A stretch of DNA of 63,997 nucleotides, counting the filler, from Candidatus Babelota bacterium (GTDB lineage: Bacteria > JAGOBX01), in NCBI GenBank assembly GCA_017999075.1. It is 13 parts of 13 records of this genome, joined end to end, with 100 filler letters (N's around TTAATTAATTAA, not from the genome) between each part and the next. Parts side by side here need not be neighbours in the genome. Positions count along the whole stretch, not along the records: positions 1 to 4,894 come from JAGOBX010000310.1; 12 more parts are not named here. The stretch is one strand, 5' to 3'. This document shows positions 1 through 4,894 of this stretch, piece after piece. Below the pieces are notes generated by a model that did not search any database, was not told the origin of the DNA, and saw only the letters and a list, made by a program, of their open reading frames with translations. Every line of letters starts with the position of its first letter. Position 1 is the first letter of the stretch. The position numbers and the translations under genes were made by a program.

Positions 1-116
1 GCGTGATTGATTCGATAACCGCTCGAGAGCTTTTCCATATTGCGATTAACTCGGAATGTTAAATTTGTAAGATTTCTATGCGCGAAATCCGCAGGTATAT
101 TGTGTTGAATTCTCAT
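1..116 (-). CDS. fliC: Flagellin, N-terminal fragment (truncated at window start; absent from the ORF track)
   Basis: Manual translation from the ATG at 116 gives MRIQHNIPADFAHRNLTNLTFRVNRNMEKLSSGYRINH, matching the flagellin N-terminal signature (MRIxHN...EKLSSGxRIN). GGAGG RBS just upstream; sigma-28 promoter further upstream. Confidence 0.88.
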   Translation of the reverse strand, partial: MRIQHNIPADFAHRNLTNLTFRVNRNMEKLSSGYRINH

Positions 117-220
117 TCAGCCGCCTCCAAACGAGATATGTATAGAACTTCTCCCTTTGGCTGCACAAGGCAGTTATACAAATGTTGTATTACGATGTTT
201 TTTTTAGGTTTCCGTTCCAT
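113..220 (-). CDS. 35-aa upstream ORF overlapping the flagellin start (ATGA overlap)
   Basis: MERKPKKNIVIQHLYNCLVQPKGEVLYISRLEAAE*. Strong RBS CGGAGGAAAATAT-ATG; its TGA overlaps the flagellin ATG. Confidence 0.45.
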   Translation of the reverse strand: MERKPKKNIVIQHLYNCLVQPKGEVLYISRLEAAE

Positions 221-317
221 ATATTTTCCTCCGTGAAATATATCAATTACATAAAGCTGATAAACAGCTATATGCTATTGGTAAAAAATATCTAATATAT
301 TTCTATAAAGTCCTCCT

Positions 318-351
318 AAAATAAAAAATGCCCGCAATTATTTGCAGGCAT
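318..351 (-). terminator. Intrinsic terminator within the flagellin 5' leader
   Basis: Minus strand ATGCCTGCAA-ATAA-TTGCGGGCAT followed by TTTTTATTTT. Confidence 0.7.
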
Positions 352-468
352 CCTTACCTTAAATATTATCCATAAAATTAAATTATTTTTGCTGGGTCAA
401 TCAATCTCCAGCGTTGAAGGTCTCTTCAGTGAAGTCCAACCTTCTTCGTCTACAAATTAACATATTAT

Positions 469-495
469 ATATCGTCAATATGTTAAATAAACTTA
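469..495 (-). promoter_or_regulatory. Sigma-28 (FliA/SigD) promoter
   Basis: Minus strand TAAG-N15-GACGATAT versus consensus TAAA-N15-GCCGATAA/T; points toward the flagellin gene. Confidence 0.7.
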
Positions 496-722
496 AGATT
501 TATTTATCAAAATTTTATAACCGTTTATTTATCAATATATTGGTTGAAAATATATTTCCCTTATATCCCGATTTTTACAGAAAAAAATTATAGAAATTTC
601 TAATATGCCATTATTTTGGATATCCTGTCTTGGAGATTATGCTTTTCTTCGGAACCAATTACGGAGTTCCGAGCCACCTGGTCTTGCCTATTAGAAATCC
701 TAATTCAATTATAAAATAATGG

Positions 723-761
723 AAGCCGTTCGAGCCTTGAAAAGCTTGGGCGGCTTTTTTT
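723..761 (+). terminator. Intrinsic terminator
   Basis: AAGCCGTTCGAGC / GCTTGGGCGGCTT 13-bp stem with G-U pairs, followed by a T run. Confidence 0.75.
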
Positions 762-942
762 ATTTCCGCTACTAAATTCACACATTAACGACTTATCCGA
801 ACAACTGGAGGTGATGAAAAGTCTCGGAAGTCCCTGCATTCTCAGCAAATTCTATCAATTATTTTAGTCCTGCCTACGAATCCTTCACTAGTATCGAGTT
901 CATAATTTTTCATTAAATTTCCTACGGGAGAGGTGTGTACAA

Positions 943-1080
943 ATGAAGAAATTGTTTATTTTGTTAATGAAATGCGCGCTGATTTTTCTCTTTTCAATGT
1001 TATTTGCAATGTGGACTGGAGCTGTAATGTTTTTCTTGATGATTGGAACTGCAATTCGTAATTACTCTGCTAAAAAATAA
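943..1080 (+). CDS. 45-aa small hydrophobic membrane peptide
   Basis: MKKLFILLMKCALIFLFSMLFAMWTGAVMFFLMIGTAIRNYSAKK*; RBS GAGAGGTG upstream; below the ORF-track cutoff. Confidence 0.6.
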   Translation: MKKLFILLMKCALIFLFSMLFAMWTGAVMFFLMIGTAIRNYSAKK

Positions 1081-1179
1081 TGCCGCTTTTTTTCCTGCCT
1101 ATAACTCCGCTACTGCTGCCGCCCTGGCTATGATTCTATTTTTATTTTATTAAATCTATTTAAAGGATGGTGTTATTTT

Positions 1180-1488
1180 ATGTGGAAAAAACCAAGTTTA
1201 TCAGTTTTAAAAACTGTGCCTGATCTTTATTCAACTGAGAATGTAAGCTGCAAAGACAAATTAATTTATCTGCATTTTTTCATCGGAAATTGCGACTGGT
1301 ATATTGCTGAAATTGATCACAGTGATTTTGATCTGATGTTCGGGTATTGCATTCTCAACGGAGATCTTGAAATGGCAGAATGGGGCTACGTTTCATTATC
1401 TGAACTTGCTGCTATCAATGTCCGCGGAATTGAAGTTGACCGTGATCTTTACTGGGATGTAAAGCTGTTCTCTAGTATCAAGCTGTAA
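1180..1488 (+). CDS. DUF2958 family protein (mobile-element associated)
   Basis: Pattern P.LY.TE...FF....WY..E.D...FG......E.GY.SL.EL...I..DRD.YW is typical of DUF2958; RBS AAGGATGG. Confidence 0.8.
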   Translation: MWKKPSLSVLKTVPDLYSTENVSCKDKLIYLHFFIGNCDWYIAEIDHSDFDLMFGYCILNGDLEMAEWGYVSLSELAAINVRGIEVDRDLYWDVKLFSSIKL

Positions 1489-1507
1489 TCCGTAAGAAAA
1501 TAATCCG

Positions 1508-1525
1508 CGCATTTTTGCCTTATAT
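1508..1525 (+). repeat. 18-nt intergenic direct repeat CGCATTTTTGCCTTATAT, copy 1
   Basis: Identical copy at 2191-2208; both follow a stop codon. Confidence 0.8.
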
Positions 1526-1569
1526 ACGACAGTATATATCGCGCGATTTTCTATCATCATTACTCACCG

Positions 1570-1614
1570 CACAAAGAGCCGAGTATGCCGTTATGGTGTA
1601 TTCGGCTTTTTGTG
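1570..1614 (+). terminator. Long-stem intrinsic terminator
   Basis: CACAAAGAGCCGAGTATGCC / GGTGTATTCGGCTTTTTGTG 20-bp stem with G-U pairs on the + strand and an embedded T run. Confidence 0.7.
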
Positions 1615-1708
1615 TTTATAGCCGCAATTTATTTAATAAACGCTACTTATCCAACCTAATTTCTTATCATTAATTTTCAATACTAAATTTATCATGGAGG
1701 TTTTTACT

Positions 1709-2188
1709 ATGGACAAAATCTGTCTTATTGGGTCAAGAACCCTTACCGATGAGATGATCCTTGACCTGCATTCTACATTGGATCAGCTTACTGCATCAAA
1801 GCAACCTGTATTTTCTACAGGTGGATGCGCTGGCATTTCCATTGAAGCAGTAAAGTACTTTATCGCTAAAGGCGATTGCTCTAAAGTTCATATCTGGCTG
1901 GCGAAGAAGCTTGAAAACATTCCGATAGTGGTTAAACCGTTTATCCATCAAGCAATAAAAATGGGCGCGATTATCATTGAATCTCATTGCAACCAATATC
2001 TTGCGGGCATTATCAGTCGAAACAAGGAAATGCTGGCTGACTGCGATATCTGTAACGCCTACCGCTTGAACAGAAGCTTGGGCACTACGCACGAACTGAA
2101 CTATGCCGCACAATACCACAAGTCAATTCTGCTACACGACTACGACACACTACAATTAAAGTTACCGCTATTTCATTTAGAAAAATAA
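1709..2188 (+). CDS. SLOG-superfamily (DprA/Smf/YspA-like) protein
   Basis: ICLIGSR, STGGCAG, SRNKEML and S.GT..E...A motifs of the SLOG fold. GGAGG RBS favours the ATG at 1709 over 1694. Confidence 0.7.
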   Translation: MDKICLIGSRTLTDEMILDLHSTLDQLTASKQPVFSTGGCAGISIEAVKYFIAKGDCSKVHIWLAKKLENIPIVVKPFIHQAIKMGAIIIESHCNQYLAGIISRNKEMLADCDICNAYRLNRSLGTTHELNYAAQYHKSILLHDYDTLQLKLPLFHLEK

Positions 2189-2190
2189 CC

Positions 2191-2208
2191 CGCATTTTTG
2201 CCTTATAT
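2191..2208 (+). repeat. 18-nt intergenic direct repeat CGCATTTTTGCCTTATAT, copy 2
   Basis: Identical to 1508-1525. Confidence 0.8.
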
Positions 2209-2285
2209 GCAGAAAAATAGGCCATTTTTTTATTCATTTCACTTCATTACAAATTTAAATTTTATAACAAGGAGTTGATGTCATT

Positions 2286-2486
2286 ATGGCATATCCGTTT
2301 GAGAGGAGCTGTACTATCCCGTATGAAACCAGTACAAAACTTAAAATTCTGGCTACCGCTGAAGGAATTCCAATTACCAAAATGATCGTTAAAATTATTG
2401 ACGAGTATTATCTCTATACAGATATCGATAAAATCAAAGCTGCAAAAATTAAACTTAATATTCAGGCAGGTGATCGCAATGTCTAA
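2286..2486 (+). CDS. Small ribbon-helix-helix-like DNA-binding protein
   Basis: 66 aa with a strand-helix-helix pattern (RSCTIP..TSTKLKILA.AEGIPITKMIVKIIDEY); RBS AAGGAG; stop overlaps the integrase start. Confidence 0.55.
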   Translation: MAYPFERSCTIPYETSTKLKILATAEGIPITKMIVKIIDEYYLYTDIDKIKAAKIKLNIQAGDRNV

Positions 2487-3312
2487 TCAAGAATTAATAT
2501 CCAAATTTATTGATCAAATGCTATTGCAGGGCAAAGCTAATTCTACTATCGGAACATACGCTTCACACGTTGGACAACTGGCTAAATGGATTGACTGTGA
2601 CCTTTCTCAAGTTACAGATGAAATGATACGCTGCTATTTTCTCAATCTCAGAACCAGTGTACCAGAAGCTGAACAGTATTATAATTCAGCTATCAGCGCA
2701 ATTAAATTGTTTGTAGAATCAACCCTCAAGCGTAAATGGATTGGGCTCGATTACATTAAGGTCAGGCATCATAAACTGAAAGAAGTATTAACCCCTGAAG
2801 AAGTCAAATACCTGCTTGAATCAATAACGAACCTCAAGCATAAGTGTATCCTTGGCTTACTATATAGCTCGATGCTCAGGCTAAATGAGGTGGTCCATCT
2901 CAAAGTCAAAGGCGATATTGATTCAAGTCAGATGATCGTTAATGTCCGAGTAGCCAAAGGCGGCAAGGAGCGCATTACAATTTTATCAGACAAAGTACTA
3001 GGCTGGTTGCGCGAATATTTCAAACAGTATCATCCAAAGGAAAGGCTCTTTGAAGGCCAGAATCCAGGTTCACACATTACGGGCAGAACGGTCGAACATA
3101 TTATGGAACAAGCATTGGACCGCTGCTGCATTGATAAGAAAGTAAGTCCTCACGGCTTACGCAGAACTGGCGCATCTCATTTGTTAGAATCTGGCGTTGA
3201 TCTACGCACAATACAGATTTTACTAGGACATAGCGATATTTCAACCAGTACGATTTACCTGCAAGTCTCTACAAGCCATATCTCAAAGATCAAAAGCTTA
3301 TTGGATAAATAA
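2479..3312 (+). CDS. Tyrosine recombinase with N-terminal SAM-like domain (integron-integrase-like/XerD-like, about 277 aa)
   Basis: Catalytic residues R (MLRLNE), K (AKGGK), HxxR (HGLRR), LGH and Y (STIY); HLLESGVDLRTIQILLGH motif. Start at 2479 supported by an AGGTGA RBS. Confidence 0.92.
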   Translation: MSNQELISKFIDQMLLQGKANSTIGTYASHVGQLAKWIDCDLSQVTDEMIRCYFLNLRTSVPEAEQYYNSAISAIKLFVESTLKRKWIGLDYIKVRHHKLKEVLTPEEVKYLLESITNLKHKCILGLLYSSMLRLNEVVHLKVKGDIDSSQMIVNVRVAKGGKERITILSDKVLGWLREYFKQYHPKERLFEGQNPGSHITGRTVEHIMEQALDRCCIDKKVSPHGLRRTGASHLLESGVDLRTIQILLGHSDISTSTIYLQVSTSHISKIKSLLDK

Positions 3313-3389
3313 TTGGCATTATTTAAAGGCAAGCCAAATAAATAGGCGGCATTTTTTCTCGTCATTACATTTTACGAATATTTTCACAT

Positions 3390-3424
3390 AAGGCGCGGCG
3401 CTGTAATAGCTCTGCGCCTTTTTT
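3390..3424 (+). terminator. Intrinsic terminator between the integrase and GGDEF genes
   Basis: AAGGCGCGGCGCT / AGCTCTGCGCCTT stem followed by a T run. Confidence 0.7.
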
Positions 3425-3457
3425 ATTTAAAACCAAAATCAAAGGAGTTGAATTACA

Positions 3458-3958
3458 ATGGTCAAGTATATTAAAGCCATTTTTATTACTATCAAAGTTT
3501 CTTTTTACATTTTCAGTGAAGCATTAGAACAGACGGACATTCATCACTTGGTTGGACTAAAGGACGCATTAACGGGATTATTCAACAGAAAATATTTCAA
3601 TTACTACACAGCTAAAAACAGCAAAAACATCAAGGGCTACATCATGCTGGACGTGGATCACTTCAAAACGATAAATGACACTCTCGGACACGACGCGGGC
3701 GACTCAACACTAATAAAATTAGCTGACTTTTTACGCACTATTCCCGCTGATTGCAAATTATTCCGCTTTGCTGGGGATGAATTCGTGATTACAGTTACTG
3801 ATAAAAAACTATTAGCGATCATTTCCCGTTACATCCGTTATAATGTTTATTCCGCCGTTGGCATCAATTGCAGTATCGGAGCAGGTTCAGACTGGAAGAC
3901 AAGCGACATAGCTTTGTATCAGTCTAAGGTTACCAGAGGCAGATATACAATTCTCTAA
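3458..3958 (+). CDS. Stand-alone GGDEF-domain protein (diguanylate cyclase, AGDEF variant)
   Basis: DALTGLFNRKYF, MLDVDHFKTINDTLGHDAGD, RFAGDEF, SIG and D.ALY.SK motifs; RBS AAGGAG. Confidence 0.88.
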   Translation: MVKYIKAIFITIKVSFYIFSEALEQTDIHHLVGLKDALTGLFNRKYFNYYTAKNSKNIKGYIMLDVDHFKTINDTLGHDAGDSTLIKLADFLRTIPADCKLFRFAGDEFVITVTDKKLLAIISRYIRYNVYSAVGINCSIGAGSDWKTSDIALYQSKVTRGRYTIL

Positions 3959-3959
3959 T

Positions 3960-4894
3960 AATATCCTCCGATAGAATTAATTCATTACAGGCACATTTTC
4001 CGTTATCAAGAGTATGTCATAAAGCAGCGGCAGTCAAACTTGATTCAGTAAAAAAATACGGCGCGATTTTCCATAATCCACTAATTTTTTTCCTGAACAA
4101 ATAGCTATTGTGACAGCCGCTTCTGCTTTATGATTTAATATTTGTTCTAAGCGGAAAATGTGTCTCTCTTCTACGCAAGATAGACTTTTTCAAGTTTGGT
4201 GTATTTGGAATATTGACTTGTATTCTATGCGCTTCAAGTTATTTCATTTCACTCGCTCGCCTATACGGTCTTTGAAGATTGTGTAGGCGGGCGATTATTG
4301 TTTTCTTATTGGATTTAGATTCACATTGCGCCGATTGTCATTGTTCTTTGTTTTCGCTGTGGGTATAGCAAGTTGGCTATCCAGCGAAAACATCCACCAT
4401 CTACATTGCAATTTTAACGTTTTTCTTGCTTATTACGGAAATTGCAATTTCGATGGCGGTAGTTAAATTCAAATACCTTTTTACATTCTATGCCGCAACG
4501 GCGTATAATATATATTATAACGCCATTGCTTATCATTGGTTCTATATGGAAATAATTGCCCGTTCGTCAACTTTGCAGTTGGACGACAGGCAATTATATT
4601 ATTTTAATTTTCTACAGCGACTGGGATTGGATTATAGCGGAACAATAATCGCCTATAGTATTCCGACTATATACCTGGGGAACACTGCTGGAGCCTTTAT
4701 GGTCTGACAGGGGTGCGGGGATAATACCGAAATAATTGTATAAAAAATTAGACTATTAAATTAGTTTGGGACTATCTCAATATTGTTATAATTGCAATAG
4801 CGACAATTTTACAATTTTTCTCAAAGGACAATAAATTGCAAATGTTGTAATTATCTAATATATTATACTTTTATTACTCGAAATCGTCGTAAGG
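3960..4894 (+). ncRNA. Candidate large structured ncRNA or structured ssDNA element (unclassified; truncated at contig end)
   Basis: At least 7 consecutive hairpins (3989-4165, 4253-4294, 4349-4392, 4394-4459, 4495-4529, 4552-4597, ~4624-4664) and no convincing CDS. Strand is uncertain. Confidence 0.4.

Follow-up and report, generated by a model that had tools for sequence, protein, structure and literature searches.

A foreign, recurrent gene module with a Xer-like recombinase beside a host-type flagellin gene in a Candidatus Babelota bacterium

Main finding

The window analyzed in this study comprises 63,997 nucleotides of a Candidatus Babelota genome, and its positions 1-4894 are one complete contig (G000:C456, hereafter C456), which is followed in the window by a spacer of N's around TTAATTAATTAA. 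The larger part of this contig is a compositionally foreign block of 4.3 kb that sits upstream of a host flagellin gene, approximately 55 bp from its sigma-28-type promoter. The genome contains at least two diverged copies of the block and one relic, each in an unrelated neighborhood, the same wastewater samples contain it as several variants, and all of its genes are under purifying selection. Owing to this recurrence elsewhere in the genome, a small mobile element with an incidental flagellin adjacency is the most likely reading: on balance, we regard the stretch from about 550 to at least 4894 as a small integrative element acquired horizontally, either whole or in its recombinase-bearing part. 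Since neither transfer or replication genes nor a second end or an empty site was found, the block may also be part of something larger. Mobile elements are already known to carry diguanylate cyclases as cargo; what is unusual here is the pairing of DUF2958 with a DprA-like protein, a covarying 7-bp hairpin repeat confined to the element, and a fold-back of approximately 175 nt (z -9).

Composition, copies, and limits of the block

The initial annotation had judged the contig by eye to be more GC-rich than the others, and this was borne out: C456 has 36.6% GC compared with a genome mean of 30.2% (contig standard deviation 2.2%, 99th percentile 36.3%), and in tetranucleotide distance it ranks 157 among 159 contigs of like length. 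The composition shifts sharply at the left boundary, with 37% GC from about position 550 on compared with 30% for the genome. The module itself has 37.7% GC on C456 and 37.3% on a second contig, C305, where the composition jumps at the same boundary, whereas the flanks of both have 29.9%, 17.5%, and 33.5%.

The C305 copy shows 82% nucleotide identity to the C456 block (552-850, 1140-1622, and 1641-3654 match at 79-83%) in identical gene order, and adjoins ResIII and N6_N4 methylase (N6_N4_Mtase) genes instead of a flagellin gene. The relic, on contig C71, retains the terminator and leader plus 18 DUF2958 codons, and is set between host genes encoding pullulanase-like and porin-like proteins. 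Gene order, for which a synteny search had been proposed, is also kept on three short metagenome contigs over the extent of each: L009 spans pep45 to the recombinase gene, L010 DUF2958 to the RHH-like gene, and L011 only DUF2958 to SLOG. The left flanks of C456, C305, and L009 differ, yet they join the block at one point, at about 550. In run X1, 67 contigs aligned to C456, 33, 10, 13, and 11 of them at 99% or more, 95-99%, 90-95%, and below 90% identity, respectively, and variant contigs cover the tail up to position 4894 at approximately 90% identity. C456 stops within this non-coding tail, and we found no second end, direct repeat common to the left end and the tail, or circular junction. 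No target sequence common to the three left flanks was evident, which also fits a cassette within different larger elements, and the search for an empty-site allele, suggested in the initial annotation, found none.

Flagellin flank

The flagellin gene is divergent from the module, as first described, and is cut by the contig end; its PF00669 score lies below the cutoff because the fragment is so short. A proposed comparison with the other flagellins of the genome gave 47-65% identity to five flagellin N-termini. The 435-bp flank has a host-like composition (29.9% GC). The upstream promoter motif was found with a regular expression for the sigma-28 consensus, which matched eight sites in the genome, compared with a mean of 2.3 in ten Markov-1 genomes; another such site lies 447 nt upstream of a flagellin gene on contig C537. 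Both the flagellin gene and the promoter lie outside the shared block and thus belong to the flank, which supports one of the two possibilities originally offered, insertion next to a host flagellin gene, as does the recurrence of the block without flagellin. The other, an element that remodels host motility with a flagellin and a c-di-GMP source of its own, draws on an adjacency seen in C456 only. Because the flagellin gene falls outside the block common to C305 and L009, no other copy has one, restriction-type genes occupy that place on C305, and GC content and promoter type of the flank are those of the host, we consider it extremely improbable.

Features of the C456 contig (positions in the window)
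Feature	Position	Strand	Evidence
Flagellin N-terminal fragment, 38 codons	3-116	-	PF00669, E 2.8e-4
Sigma-28-like promoter, TAAGTTT-N11-TGACGATAT	469-495	-	Regex scan; 379 nt upstream of the flagellin ATG
Left end of shared block and leader	552-768	+	Alignment of four copies
pep45, 45-aa hydrophobic peptide gene	943-1080	+	ORF call
DUF2958 protein, 102 aa, small beta-barrel	1180-1488	+	PF11171, 36.4 bits (cutoff 21)
Element-specific hairpin repeat copy, CGCATTTWTGCCT, 7-bp stem, then TCGC	1509-1545	+	Seven-copy alignment
DprA-like SLOG (Rossmann) protein, 159 aa	1709-2188	+	Profile of 16 relatives, matching DprA
RHH-like small protein	2286-2486	+	PHROG Arc-like match, E 0.048
Xer-like tyrosine recombinase, 277 aa	2479-3312	+	PF00589, 117.8 bits; SAM_4, 39 bits
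Short GGDEF protein, 166 aa	3458-3958	+	PF00990, 71.5 bits
Long imperfect fold-back, ~175 nt	3989-4165	+	RNA fold of 3959-4310
Terminator-like hairpin, 19 bp	4253-4294	+	Terminator scan and fold
Rest of non-coding tail	4300-4894	+	Fold z -4.5; runs to contig end

Genes of the block

The six co-oriented small genes reported at the outset are real ORFs on the plus strand, each preceded, as claimed, by its own GGAG-type Shine-Dalgarno sequence. Pfam and PHROG profile searches of the 4.9 kb found no relaxase, replication, or transfer genes. The hydrophobic peptide, which had no family match and no Atlas match, is optional: its gene is present on C456 and L009 and missing from C305 and from one run X2 variant contig, in which position 859 is joined to 1210; the comparison of run contigs likewise shows variants without it.

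DUF2958 is, as the initial annotation stated, common on plasmids and phages: 29 plasmid records, 2 phage records, and 21 IMG/VR loci carry it, and some of the IMG/VR members are N-termini of giant helicase proteins adjoining ART-PolyVal proteins. The protein has 674 word-sharing relatives. Its AF2 model (pLDDT 95.6) gave no clear match in a PDB fold search, and it was found in none of three other genomes of the phylum. The corresponding statement about SLOG/DprA-like genes did not hold for this protein, whose lineage had no match in the plasmid or the phage collection; it had only 19 matches among 1.84 billion representatives and was found in neither of two other genomes of the family. Its Pfam matches are weak and under cutoff. 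Of the 16 matches scanned, 12 carry PF02481. The profile of its relatives finds Helicobacter pylori DprA at E 2.2e-10; by this comparison, it is closer to DprA than to SLOG sensor families. The ORF is also open from 1694, but the Shine-Dalgarno sequence and the relatives favour the start at 1709. Pairing of DUF2958 with a DprA-like gene was seen at none of 24 other DUF2958 loci examined.

The stop of the RHH-like gene overlaps the recombinase start by 8 nt. The first 44 residues of its product are invariant in three copies; the PHROG match is the sole support for the assignment, and a PDB search returned no match. The recombinase falls below the cutoffs of the XerA, XerC, XerD, and IntI models. 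The GGDEF protein (TIGR00254, 71 bits, cutoff 37.4) can be aligned to solved cyclases and has an N-terminal hydrophobic helix, no sensor domain, and an AGDEF motif, a degenerate form that is invariant in five variants; in what one source reports, activity of an AGDEF enzyme is known from another protein only (PMC3974145).

Non-coding structures

The leader consists of a conserved promoter-proximal part (552-607), a variable center (approximately 608-717), and a conserved intrinsic terminator (721-758) with a T run, which a terminator scan also found and which is kept in all four copies with no compensatory changes; run X1 contigs skip the stretch from 607/608 to 718/720. In the hairpin repeat, 49 of 49 cells pair across the seven copies and three of the seven pairs show compensatory changes, and its covariance model matches the genome at E < 1e-5 only on C456 and C305. 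The spacer motifs that had been described as shared between the genes survive in part: an exact 18-nt repeat stands at 1508 and 2191. A motif match turns up three times on the plus strand of C456 and twice in the remaining 59 kb of the window, but 6 of 100 whole-window shuffles yield at least five matches; the other motif copies are weak. A conserved terminator-like hairpin follows DUF2958.

The structured region listed in the initial annotation was corroborated downstream of the genes: the RNA fold of 3959-4310 has -113 kcal/mol, compared with -70.2 ± 4.7 for shuffles (z -9.1), 3975-4180 folds as ssDNA with z -4.6, and the rest of the tail also departs from shuffles, with inverted repeats at 4389-4464 and 4552-4597 and four AATTGCAAW sites from 4405 to 4842.

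Comparison with known systems

Like IME-type islands, small integrative elements and genomic islands that encode a tyrosine recombinase and a small directionality or regulator protein, the block has a recombinase gene preceded by a small, translationally coupled gene of DNA-binding type, foreign composition, several insertion contexts, and accessory cargo; unlike them, it has no identifiable att repeats, tRNA target, relaxase, or oriT, and its recombinase is Xer-like rather than a phage-type integrase with an arm-binding domain. The best NCBIfam model of the recombinase is 'XerA / integron integrase', and short structured repeats between co-oriented small genes, one of them optional, also recall integrons. 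However, the IntI-specific insertion is missing (16 residues for about 70 model positions), the stems of 7 bp differ from attC, the repeats vary in copy number while gene order is fixed, and the pep45 indel is not bounded by hairpins.

The SLOG protein shares the Rossmann core and the GSR, TGG-x-G, RN, and GT motifs with DprA/Smf (H. pylori, 4LJR/4LJK) and ShosA (9VZO), but it is the core only, below the PF02481 cutoff, and is paired with DUF2958 instead of the PRTase partner of ShosTA. In viral contigs, giant Strawberry-notch-type helicase proteins begin with DUF2958 and lie beside ART-PolyVal, Topo-IB, and NUDIX proteins; here, unlike in polyvalent proteins, the domains are separate small genes. 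Frpo/ssi are single-strand promoters of plasmid leading regions, and the long imperfect fold-back, stable as ssDNA and accompanied by a DUF2958-type gene, resembles them, although it follows the genes instead of preceding them, the region before DUF2958 has no unusual fold (z +0.25), and promoter boxes are not established in it. Iyer et al. (2017, PMC5512222) note GGDEF domains in polyvalent proteins, and DUF2958 is not mentioned in the main text of that paper. The enzymes DgcK/DgcL of SXT/R391 ICEs and Dgc137 of the Vibrio alginolyticus island VPII, described as lowering motility and raising biofilm formation (PMC10672970), are likewise GGDEF enzymes carried by integrating elements; the predicted cyclase of the block differs from them as a rare, sensor-less AGDEF form.

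Possible function and alternative explanations

If the block is a small integrative element, the Xer-like recombinase, helped or regulated by the RHH-like protein, would insert and excise it. The DprA fold binds single-stranded DNA, DUF2958 occurs in establishment genes of plasmids and phages and in polyvalent proteins, and the pair may handle or protect element DNA on entry. The AGDEF protein would be cargo that raises host c-di-GMP, and it might act on motility. The terminator-bearing leader, the hairpin repeat, and the fold-back could serve as regulatory or recombination/transfer signals.

Alternatively, though we think it rather unlikely, the block is the conserved establishment-plus-recombination segment of larger mobile elements (a conjugative element, plasmid, or prophage) cut by the fragmented assembly; in that case, the recombinase would serve the larger element in resolution or integration, and the ResIII/methylase genes, even the flagellin gene, could be neighboring cargo. 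At other loci, DUF2958 is located within large plasmids and phages, where it is surrounded by small early-type genes and adjoins orphan methylases and recombinases, and the missing transfer and replication genes, the missing second end, the left flanks without a common target, and a fold-back resembling those of leading regions agree with this. The host-type promoter and flagellin in the C456 flank, the sharp left boundary, and the position of the relic between ordinary host genes, on a contig of 30.5% GC, speak against this reading. Mis-binning of C456 from another organism of the same wastewater community, whose own composition would then appear foreign, is improbable: the contig is short and an outlier in GC and tetranucleotides, the bin of 594 contigs has 2.6% estimated contamination, and many variants are present in the sample, but the flank is host-like and has a host-type sigma-28-like motif, C305 and C71, the latter of typical composition, contain related sequence, and C305 changes composition at the same boundary.

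A nucleotide-signaling conflict (defence/counter-defence) module, in which an AGDEF/mCpol-like cyclase makes a signal nucleotide that the SLOG protein senses or degrades, with DUF2958 or the 45-aa membrane peptide as effector, is likewise improbable. The cyclase matches mCpol weakly (PF18182, E 7.5e-4; NF033576, E 2.7e-5, below cutoff) and true diguanylate cyclases much better (E 9e-20); the SLOG protein matches SLOG cluster4 weakly (E 0.0019), and its profile finds the DprA-like antitoxin ShosA among PDB matches at E 0.0013, but DprA (E 2.2e-10) is far closer to it than the sensor SLOG families are. The two lineages are both rare, with the same pattern of four close relatives followed by a gap. 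Nevertheless, none of the six proteins matches PADLOC at E ≤ 0.1, the RHH-like and recombinase genes and terminator-like hairpins separate the cyclase gene from the SLOG gene, and the peptide is optional.

Selection and divergence

For the four genes with an estimable dS, comparison of two copies gave dN/dS values of 0.07-0.27 (DUF2958, 0.27; SLOG, 0.085; RHH, 0.26; first 65 codons of GGDEF, 0.07). The recombinase gene has a pN of 0.12 against a pS of 0.78, and pep45, compared with L009, a dN of 0.028 and a dS of 0.126. Divergence along the block is mosaic: the stretch from DUF2958 through RHH is 86-90% identical, the recombinase core only 63-75%, and the sequence beyond the core 84-92%.

Gene content of the block

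The metagenome-assembled wastewater Babelota genome (G000) comprises 594 contigs (3.83 Mb); contig C456 occupies positions 1-4894 of the window, in which the other contigs are joined by N spacers. Six ORFs are encoded on the + strand of C456, each preceded by a GGAG-type ribosome-binding site, and these ORFs, together with their conserved order in other contigs, bear out the initial annotation, which had described six co-oriented genes with their own ribosome-binding sites beside a flagellin gene. The six genes are real, and the block they form (~550 to at least 4894) is a unit.

Features of contig C456, with positions in the window
Feature	Position	Strand	Basis or remark
pep45, 45-aa hydrophobic peptide	943-1080	+	ORF
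DUF2958 protein	1180-1488	+	PF11171, 36.4 bits vs. cutoff 21 (above gathering cutoff)
SLOG-fold protein	1694-2188, start at 1709 favored	+	Shine-Dalgarno sequence and relatives back 1709
RHH-like protein, 66 aa	2286-2486	+	Stop overlapped by recombinase start
Tyrosine recombinase	2479-3312	+	PF00589, 117.8 vs. 27.1 bits
GGDEF protein, 166 aa	3458-3958	+	PF00990, 71.5 vs. 23.8 bits; TIGR00254, 71 vs. 37.4 bits
Flagellin N-terminus, 38 codons, cut by contig start		-	PF00669, E = 2.8e-4
Fold-back, ~175 nt	3989-4165		Tail, downstream of the genes; a 19-bp hairpin also lies in the tail

The final 936 bases of C456 contain no convincing ORF, and no tRNA gene was found on the contig. An Rfam scan of 1-4894 returned only a chance-level match (NrrF, 20.7 vs. 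60 bits, E = 0.73) and no c-di-GMP riboswitch.

A foreign, recurrent, and selectively maintained block

A second genomic copy, on contig C305, matches C456 over 552-850, 1140-1622, and 1641-3654 at 79-83% nucleotide identity and has the same gene order, its contig end falling within the GGDEF gene. Three metagenome contigs from other samples preserve the order to the extent of each contig: L009 encodes pep45, DUF2958, SLOG, RHH-like protein, and recombinase, L010 encodes DUF2958, SLOG, and RHH-like protein, and L011 encodes DUF2958 and SLOG only. The synteny that the initial annotation had proposed to search for is found, over the stretch each contig covers, in C305 and in all three of these contigs. 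C456 and C305 share 91% protein identity in DUF2958, 94% in SLOG, 89% in the RHH-like protein, 83% in the recombinase, and 91% in the first 65 residues of the GGDEF protein, with dN/dS values of 0.27 for DUF2958, 0.085 for SLOG, 0.26 for the RHH-like protein, and 0.07 for GGDEF (first 65 residues); for the recombinase, pN is 0.12 compared to a saturated pS of 0.78.

The left flanks of C456, C305, and L009 all differ, and conserved sequence begins at one point, ~550. The flagellin gene is the neighbor in C456, and genes encoding a 995-aa ResIII protein and an N6_N4 methylase are the neighbors in C305. GC content shifts at this boundary, from 29.9% in the flagellin flank to 37.7% in the module of C456, and in C305 from 17.5% in the 120-bp flank and 33.5% in the neighboring genes to 37.3% in the module. 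As a whole, C456 (36.6% GC) exceeds the genome mean (30.2%, sd 2.2%; 99th percentile 36.3%) and ranks 157 of 159 contigs of similar length in tetranucleotide distance, in agreement with the by-eye impression in the initial annotation that it is more GC-rich than the host contigs. The block is thus foreign, recurrent, and selectively maintained, with an intact-looking recombinase.

Nucleotide identity between C456 and C305 is mosaic, 86-90% from DUF2958 to the RHH-like gene, 63-75% in the recombinase core, and 84-92% thereafter, which suggests, from these alignments, that variants exchanged segments. Flanking genes differ far less between the two copies than does the recombinase core at window 2640-3240. 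Contigs of 85-99% identity that span the block up to 4894 are numerous in four wastewater runs from a single study, and in run X1 alone 67 contigs match C456, of which 33 do so at 99% or more, 10 at 95-99%, 13 at 90-95%, and 11 below 90%; such graded identity indicates that a family of variants coexists. As assemblies, possibly of the source sample, these contigs serve as independent proof of variation only. Among the matching contigs of the four runs, neither a circular form (back-joint) nor a second end was found, and the empty-site alleles that the initial annotation had suggested looking for were likewise absent; a 20-letter unmatched contig end at 494 is too short for interpretation. No contig-end overlaps were found for C456 or C305. 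On C456, the left end is not repeated within the tail, and the tail itself occurs nowhere else in this genome.

Compared with plasmids, the block DNA matched only in a 60-nt GGDEF motif, and compared with phages it matched nothing. The SLOG protein was found in none of two other genomes of the host family, and DUF2958 in none of three other genomes of the phylum; in the collection searched, the phylum is represented by four species-level genomes and the family by three. The runs containing C456 are wastewater and biogas metagenomes.

Contig C71 (13829-14050) carries a relic of the 5' part of the block, in which only the first 18 codons of DUF2958 remain along with the terminator and leader. 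Its neighbors are ordinary host genes, one porin-like and the other unrelated, and the contig has typical host GC content (30.5%).

The flagellin flank

The initial annotation had offered two readings, an element next to a host flagellin gene or an element carrying its own flagellin. The latter loses ground, as the flagellin gene lies outside the block common to the copies. The flank carries a sigma-28-like motif, TAAGTTT-N11-TGACGATAT, at 469-495 on the - strand, with 379 nt between it and the flagellin ATG downstream. This pattern, loosely matched, has eight sites in the genome, compared to an average of 2.3 (range 1-5) across ten Markov-1 genomes, a modest enrichment, and one of the eight lies 447 nt upstream of the flagellin gene on contig C537. 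The left end of the block is ~55 bp from the sigma-28-like promoter and reads away from it. The flank of C456 looks like part of the host's own flagellar regulon, which favors the first of the two readings and counts against mis-binning of C456 as an explanation for its presence in this genome.

Sigma-28-like motifs (C456, C537, C342, and C352) lie 270-450 nt upstream of flagellin starts, and a terminator-like hairpin (324-355, - strand) stands between promoter and flagellin gene in C456, which hints at long regulated flagellin leaders in this genome. A 35-aa ORF (113-220, - strand) with a strong GGAGG site overlaps the flagellin start codon by ATGA and has no family match; a coupled leader peptide and a chance ORF are both conceivable. 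The region upstream of flagellin also exists as a strain variant: in a contig from runs X1 and X4, 383 different letters take the place of the 163 bases between 179 and 343 and link 1-179 to 343-472.

Recombinase, RHH-like protein, and pep45

The R-K-H-R-H-Y motif residues were identified by eye in the recombinase. It scores under the NCBIfam equivalog cutoffs for XerC (147.3 vs. 335 bits), XerD (152.6 vs. 329.6 bits), and XerA (193.3 vs. 220 bits), and below the cutoff for integron integrase (TIGR02249/PRK15417, 132.9 vs. 265 bits), to which it matches in two stretches that skip model positions ~180-250, where the IntI-specific segment is missing. By these scores, it is an Xer-like recombinase outside the XerA, XerC, XerD, and IntI cutoffs. 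In IMG/VR, nothing related to the recombinase or the GGDEF protein was found.

The RHH-like protein shows a weak Arc-like PHROG match (E = 0.048), no Pfam match at E ≤ 0.1, no PDB sequence at E ≤ 10, and nothing related among plasmids; three copies agree fully over its N-terminal 44 residues. The pep45 gene is optional, being present in C456 and L009 and missing from C305 and a run X2 variant contig, and its product has neither a family match nor an Atlas match. Direct repeats of 22 nt (862-883 and 1087-1108, 77% identical, TTTT..TCCTGCCTA..) flank pep45 in C456, and C305, without the gene, has one such site; the indel may have arisen via recombination between the repeats.

DUF2958 and the DprA-like SLOG protein

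The SLOG protein is rare, with only four word-sharing relatives and, in a profile search, only 19 matches at E ≤ 0.001 among 1.84 billion representatives. On its own, it scores below the gathering cutoff of PF02481, the DprA domain (14.1 vs. 29.6 bits), and below that of SLOG cluster4 (PF18306, 18.3 vs. 26.3 bits), and PF02481 is present in 12 of 16 scanned distant relatives. A profile of 16 relatives matched DprA structures in the PDB over profile positions 5-149 (4LJR, E = 2.2e-10; 3UQZ, E = 3.1e-5); a weak match to ShosA, a DprA-like antitoxin, was also obtained (E = 0.0013). Among these 16, little or no variation affects GSR, TGG-x-x-G, GT, and the invariant Arg R109. The protein's neighbors in language-model space are short clusters of DprA-like type, including a viral one. 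Canonical DprA carries extra N- and C-terminal domains; the SLOG protein, at only 159-164 aa, is covered nearly entirely by the DprA match and lacks the full architecture. These matches and neighbors point to a minimal DprA-like Rossmann protein rather than a sensor-type SLOG.

Searches for further relatives yielded five loci in genome contigs, two of which (L012 and L015) are false positives, namely anthranilate-synthase amidotransferase genes, and the other three are weak matches of 56-59 residues. Phages and plasmids contained nothing related, and IMG/VR one weak locus (27% identity over 48 residues). A fold model built from five sequences was poor (pLDDT 50.6) and was set aside.

DUF2958 is abundant, with 674 relatives at 50-60% identity across phyla, and was found on 29 plasmid records (often as helicase fusions), 2 phage records, and at 21 IMG/VR loci, 11 of which were scanned and have terminases and small integrases nearby. 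On plasmids, it is surrounded by small unnamed genes and adjoins an orphan methylase or recombinases. Its predicted structure is a small beta-barrel (pLDDT 95.6), with no Foldseek match among solved structures at E ≤ 0.001 (best 0.59); the best VIA hit (Z 4.2) led to generic small barrels, uninformative with regard to function. The DprA-like profile matched nothing at the 21 IMG/VR and three plasmid DUF2958 loci, and the pairing of the two proteins appears to be peculiar to the present element.

Two IMG/VR loci, L040 (5590-10752) and L042 (5890-11700), encode proteins of 1720 and 1936 aa with a DUF2958 N-terminus followed by Strawberry-notch-type helicase domains. They adjoin proteins of 1523 and 1673 aa with Topo-IB and NUDIX domains; ART-PolyVal is present in the L042 neighbor only.

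The GGDEF protein

The GGDEF protein aligns with solved diguanylate cyclases across the catalytic half. Its motif reads AGDEF instead of GGDEF, and does so in each of five variants. It has a hydrophobic N-terminal helix and no sensor domain, and its four close relatives are followed by a gap to at most 49% identity. Matches to mCpol fall below the cutoffs (PF18182, 20.3 vs. 26.4 bits; NF033576, 24.8 vs. 40 bits). Activity has been reported for an AGDEF enzyme from Vibrio cholerae (PMC3974145).

Non-coding features

The leader consists of a conserved segment and a copy-variable center (608-717), skipped in some run X1 contigs, followed by an intrinsic terminator kept in all four copies. Examined as a structured RNA, the leader (590-775) was supported for the terminator alone, and the region ahead of DUF2958 (552-942), treated as ssDNA, showed no unusual fold (z +0.25).

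The spacers after DUF2958 and after SLOG contain zero to three copies of a 38-nt hairpin repeat (CGCATTTWTGCCT, with a 7-bp stem, then TCGC). Across seven copies, all 49 cells pair, and in three of the seven pairs both partners have changed; the covariation score was 0.544 compared to 0.274 ± 0.063 and was reached in none of 500 shuffles, in a small sample in which two copies share one stem. In all four G.T pairs, the G lies in the 5' arm as read on the + strand, which fits folding of that strand. A covariance model matches only C456 and C305 in the genome at E < 1e-5, which rules out a genome-wide REP or MITE.

In the tail, 3959-4310 folds at -113 kcal/mol compared to -70.2 ± 4.7 for shuffled sequences (z -9.1; as ssDNA, z -4.6), and further inverted repeats are present (z -4.5). 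The ~175-nt fold-back could be a transfer signal. Four AATTGCAAW sites lie within 440 nt of the tail (4405-4842), two of them in inverted-repeat arms at 4389-4464; window-wide, the motif is not enriched (11 matches vs. 9.9 expected).

Interpretation of the block

We lean towards the view that the block is a mobile integrative element moved by its own recombinase, with entry-handling proteins, and with a cyclase as its cargo. The recombinase and the coupled RHH-like protein would move the block, DUF2958 and the DprA-like protein may act on element DNA at entry or during recombination, and the structured DNA or RNA elements might provide control or recombination/transfer signals. By analogy with DgcK/DgcL of SXT/R391 elements and Dgc137 of a Vibrio island, reported to raise c-di-GMP and lower motility (PMC10672970), the AGDEF protein would be cargo that raises c-di-GMP. 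A second end, a common target sequence, and any transfer gene are all lacking, which speaks for a block that forms one segment within larger elements, a reading we regard as unlikely though worth keeping in mind; neither a relaxase, coupling protein, or T4SS gene nor an oriT was found among the ORFs of the 4.9-kb contig, which is itself cut at its end.

A nucleotide-signaling defense module is very improbable, since the SLOG protein is closer to DprA and none of the six proteins matched PADLOC-DB 2.0 (including ShosTA) at E ≤ 0.1; the PRTase domain, the toxin partner in ShosTA, is absent from the ORFs scanned. An integron is ruled out, because the IntI-specific segment is missing and the number of hairpins varies while gene order stays fixed. 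We see a slim chance that the block is a self-contained mobile module of an undescribed kind, in which the Xer-like recombinase and a DprA-like ssDNA binder would act on signals that fold as single strands, namely the ~175-nt fold-back and the hairpin repeat, with its covarying stems and its G.T pairs tolerated on just one strand. Recombination or entry would then depend on hairpins, much as in integrons but outside the IntI family, with the AGDEF cyclase as host-manipulating cargo.

As a mobile integrative element, the block belongs to a known kind, integrating elements that carry a recombinase and cargo genes, cyclases among them, and none of these findings overturns current views. No description of its gene set, of the DUF2958/DprA-like pair, or of the element-specific hairpin repeat was found in the literature outside subscription journals. 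With four species-level genomes searched, mobile elements of the host phylum are nearly uncharted, and the block offers a compact, recurrent, and apparently active family for studying them. The widespread and uncharacterized DUF2958 gains a conserved partner, the minimal DprA-like protein, and a confident fold model, which makes a role in handling incoming DNA testable. The cyclase cargo would be a case outside Proteobacteria of mobile elements retuning host c-di-GMP.

A second DUF2958 locus in the genome

At contig C176 (2-2113), a more distant DUF2958 protein (57% identity over 60 residues) is encoded, cut by the contig end. It is preceded by a lysine-rich 124-aa ORF, with a 278-aa serine recombinase nearby, and the locus represents a second type of DUF2958-bearing element within this genome.
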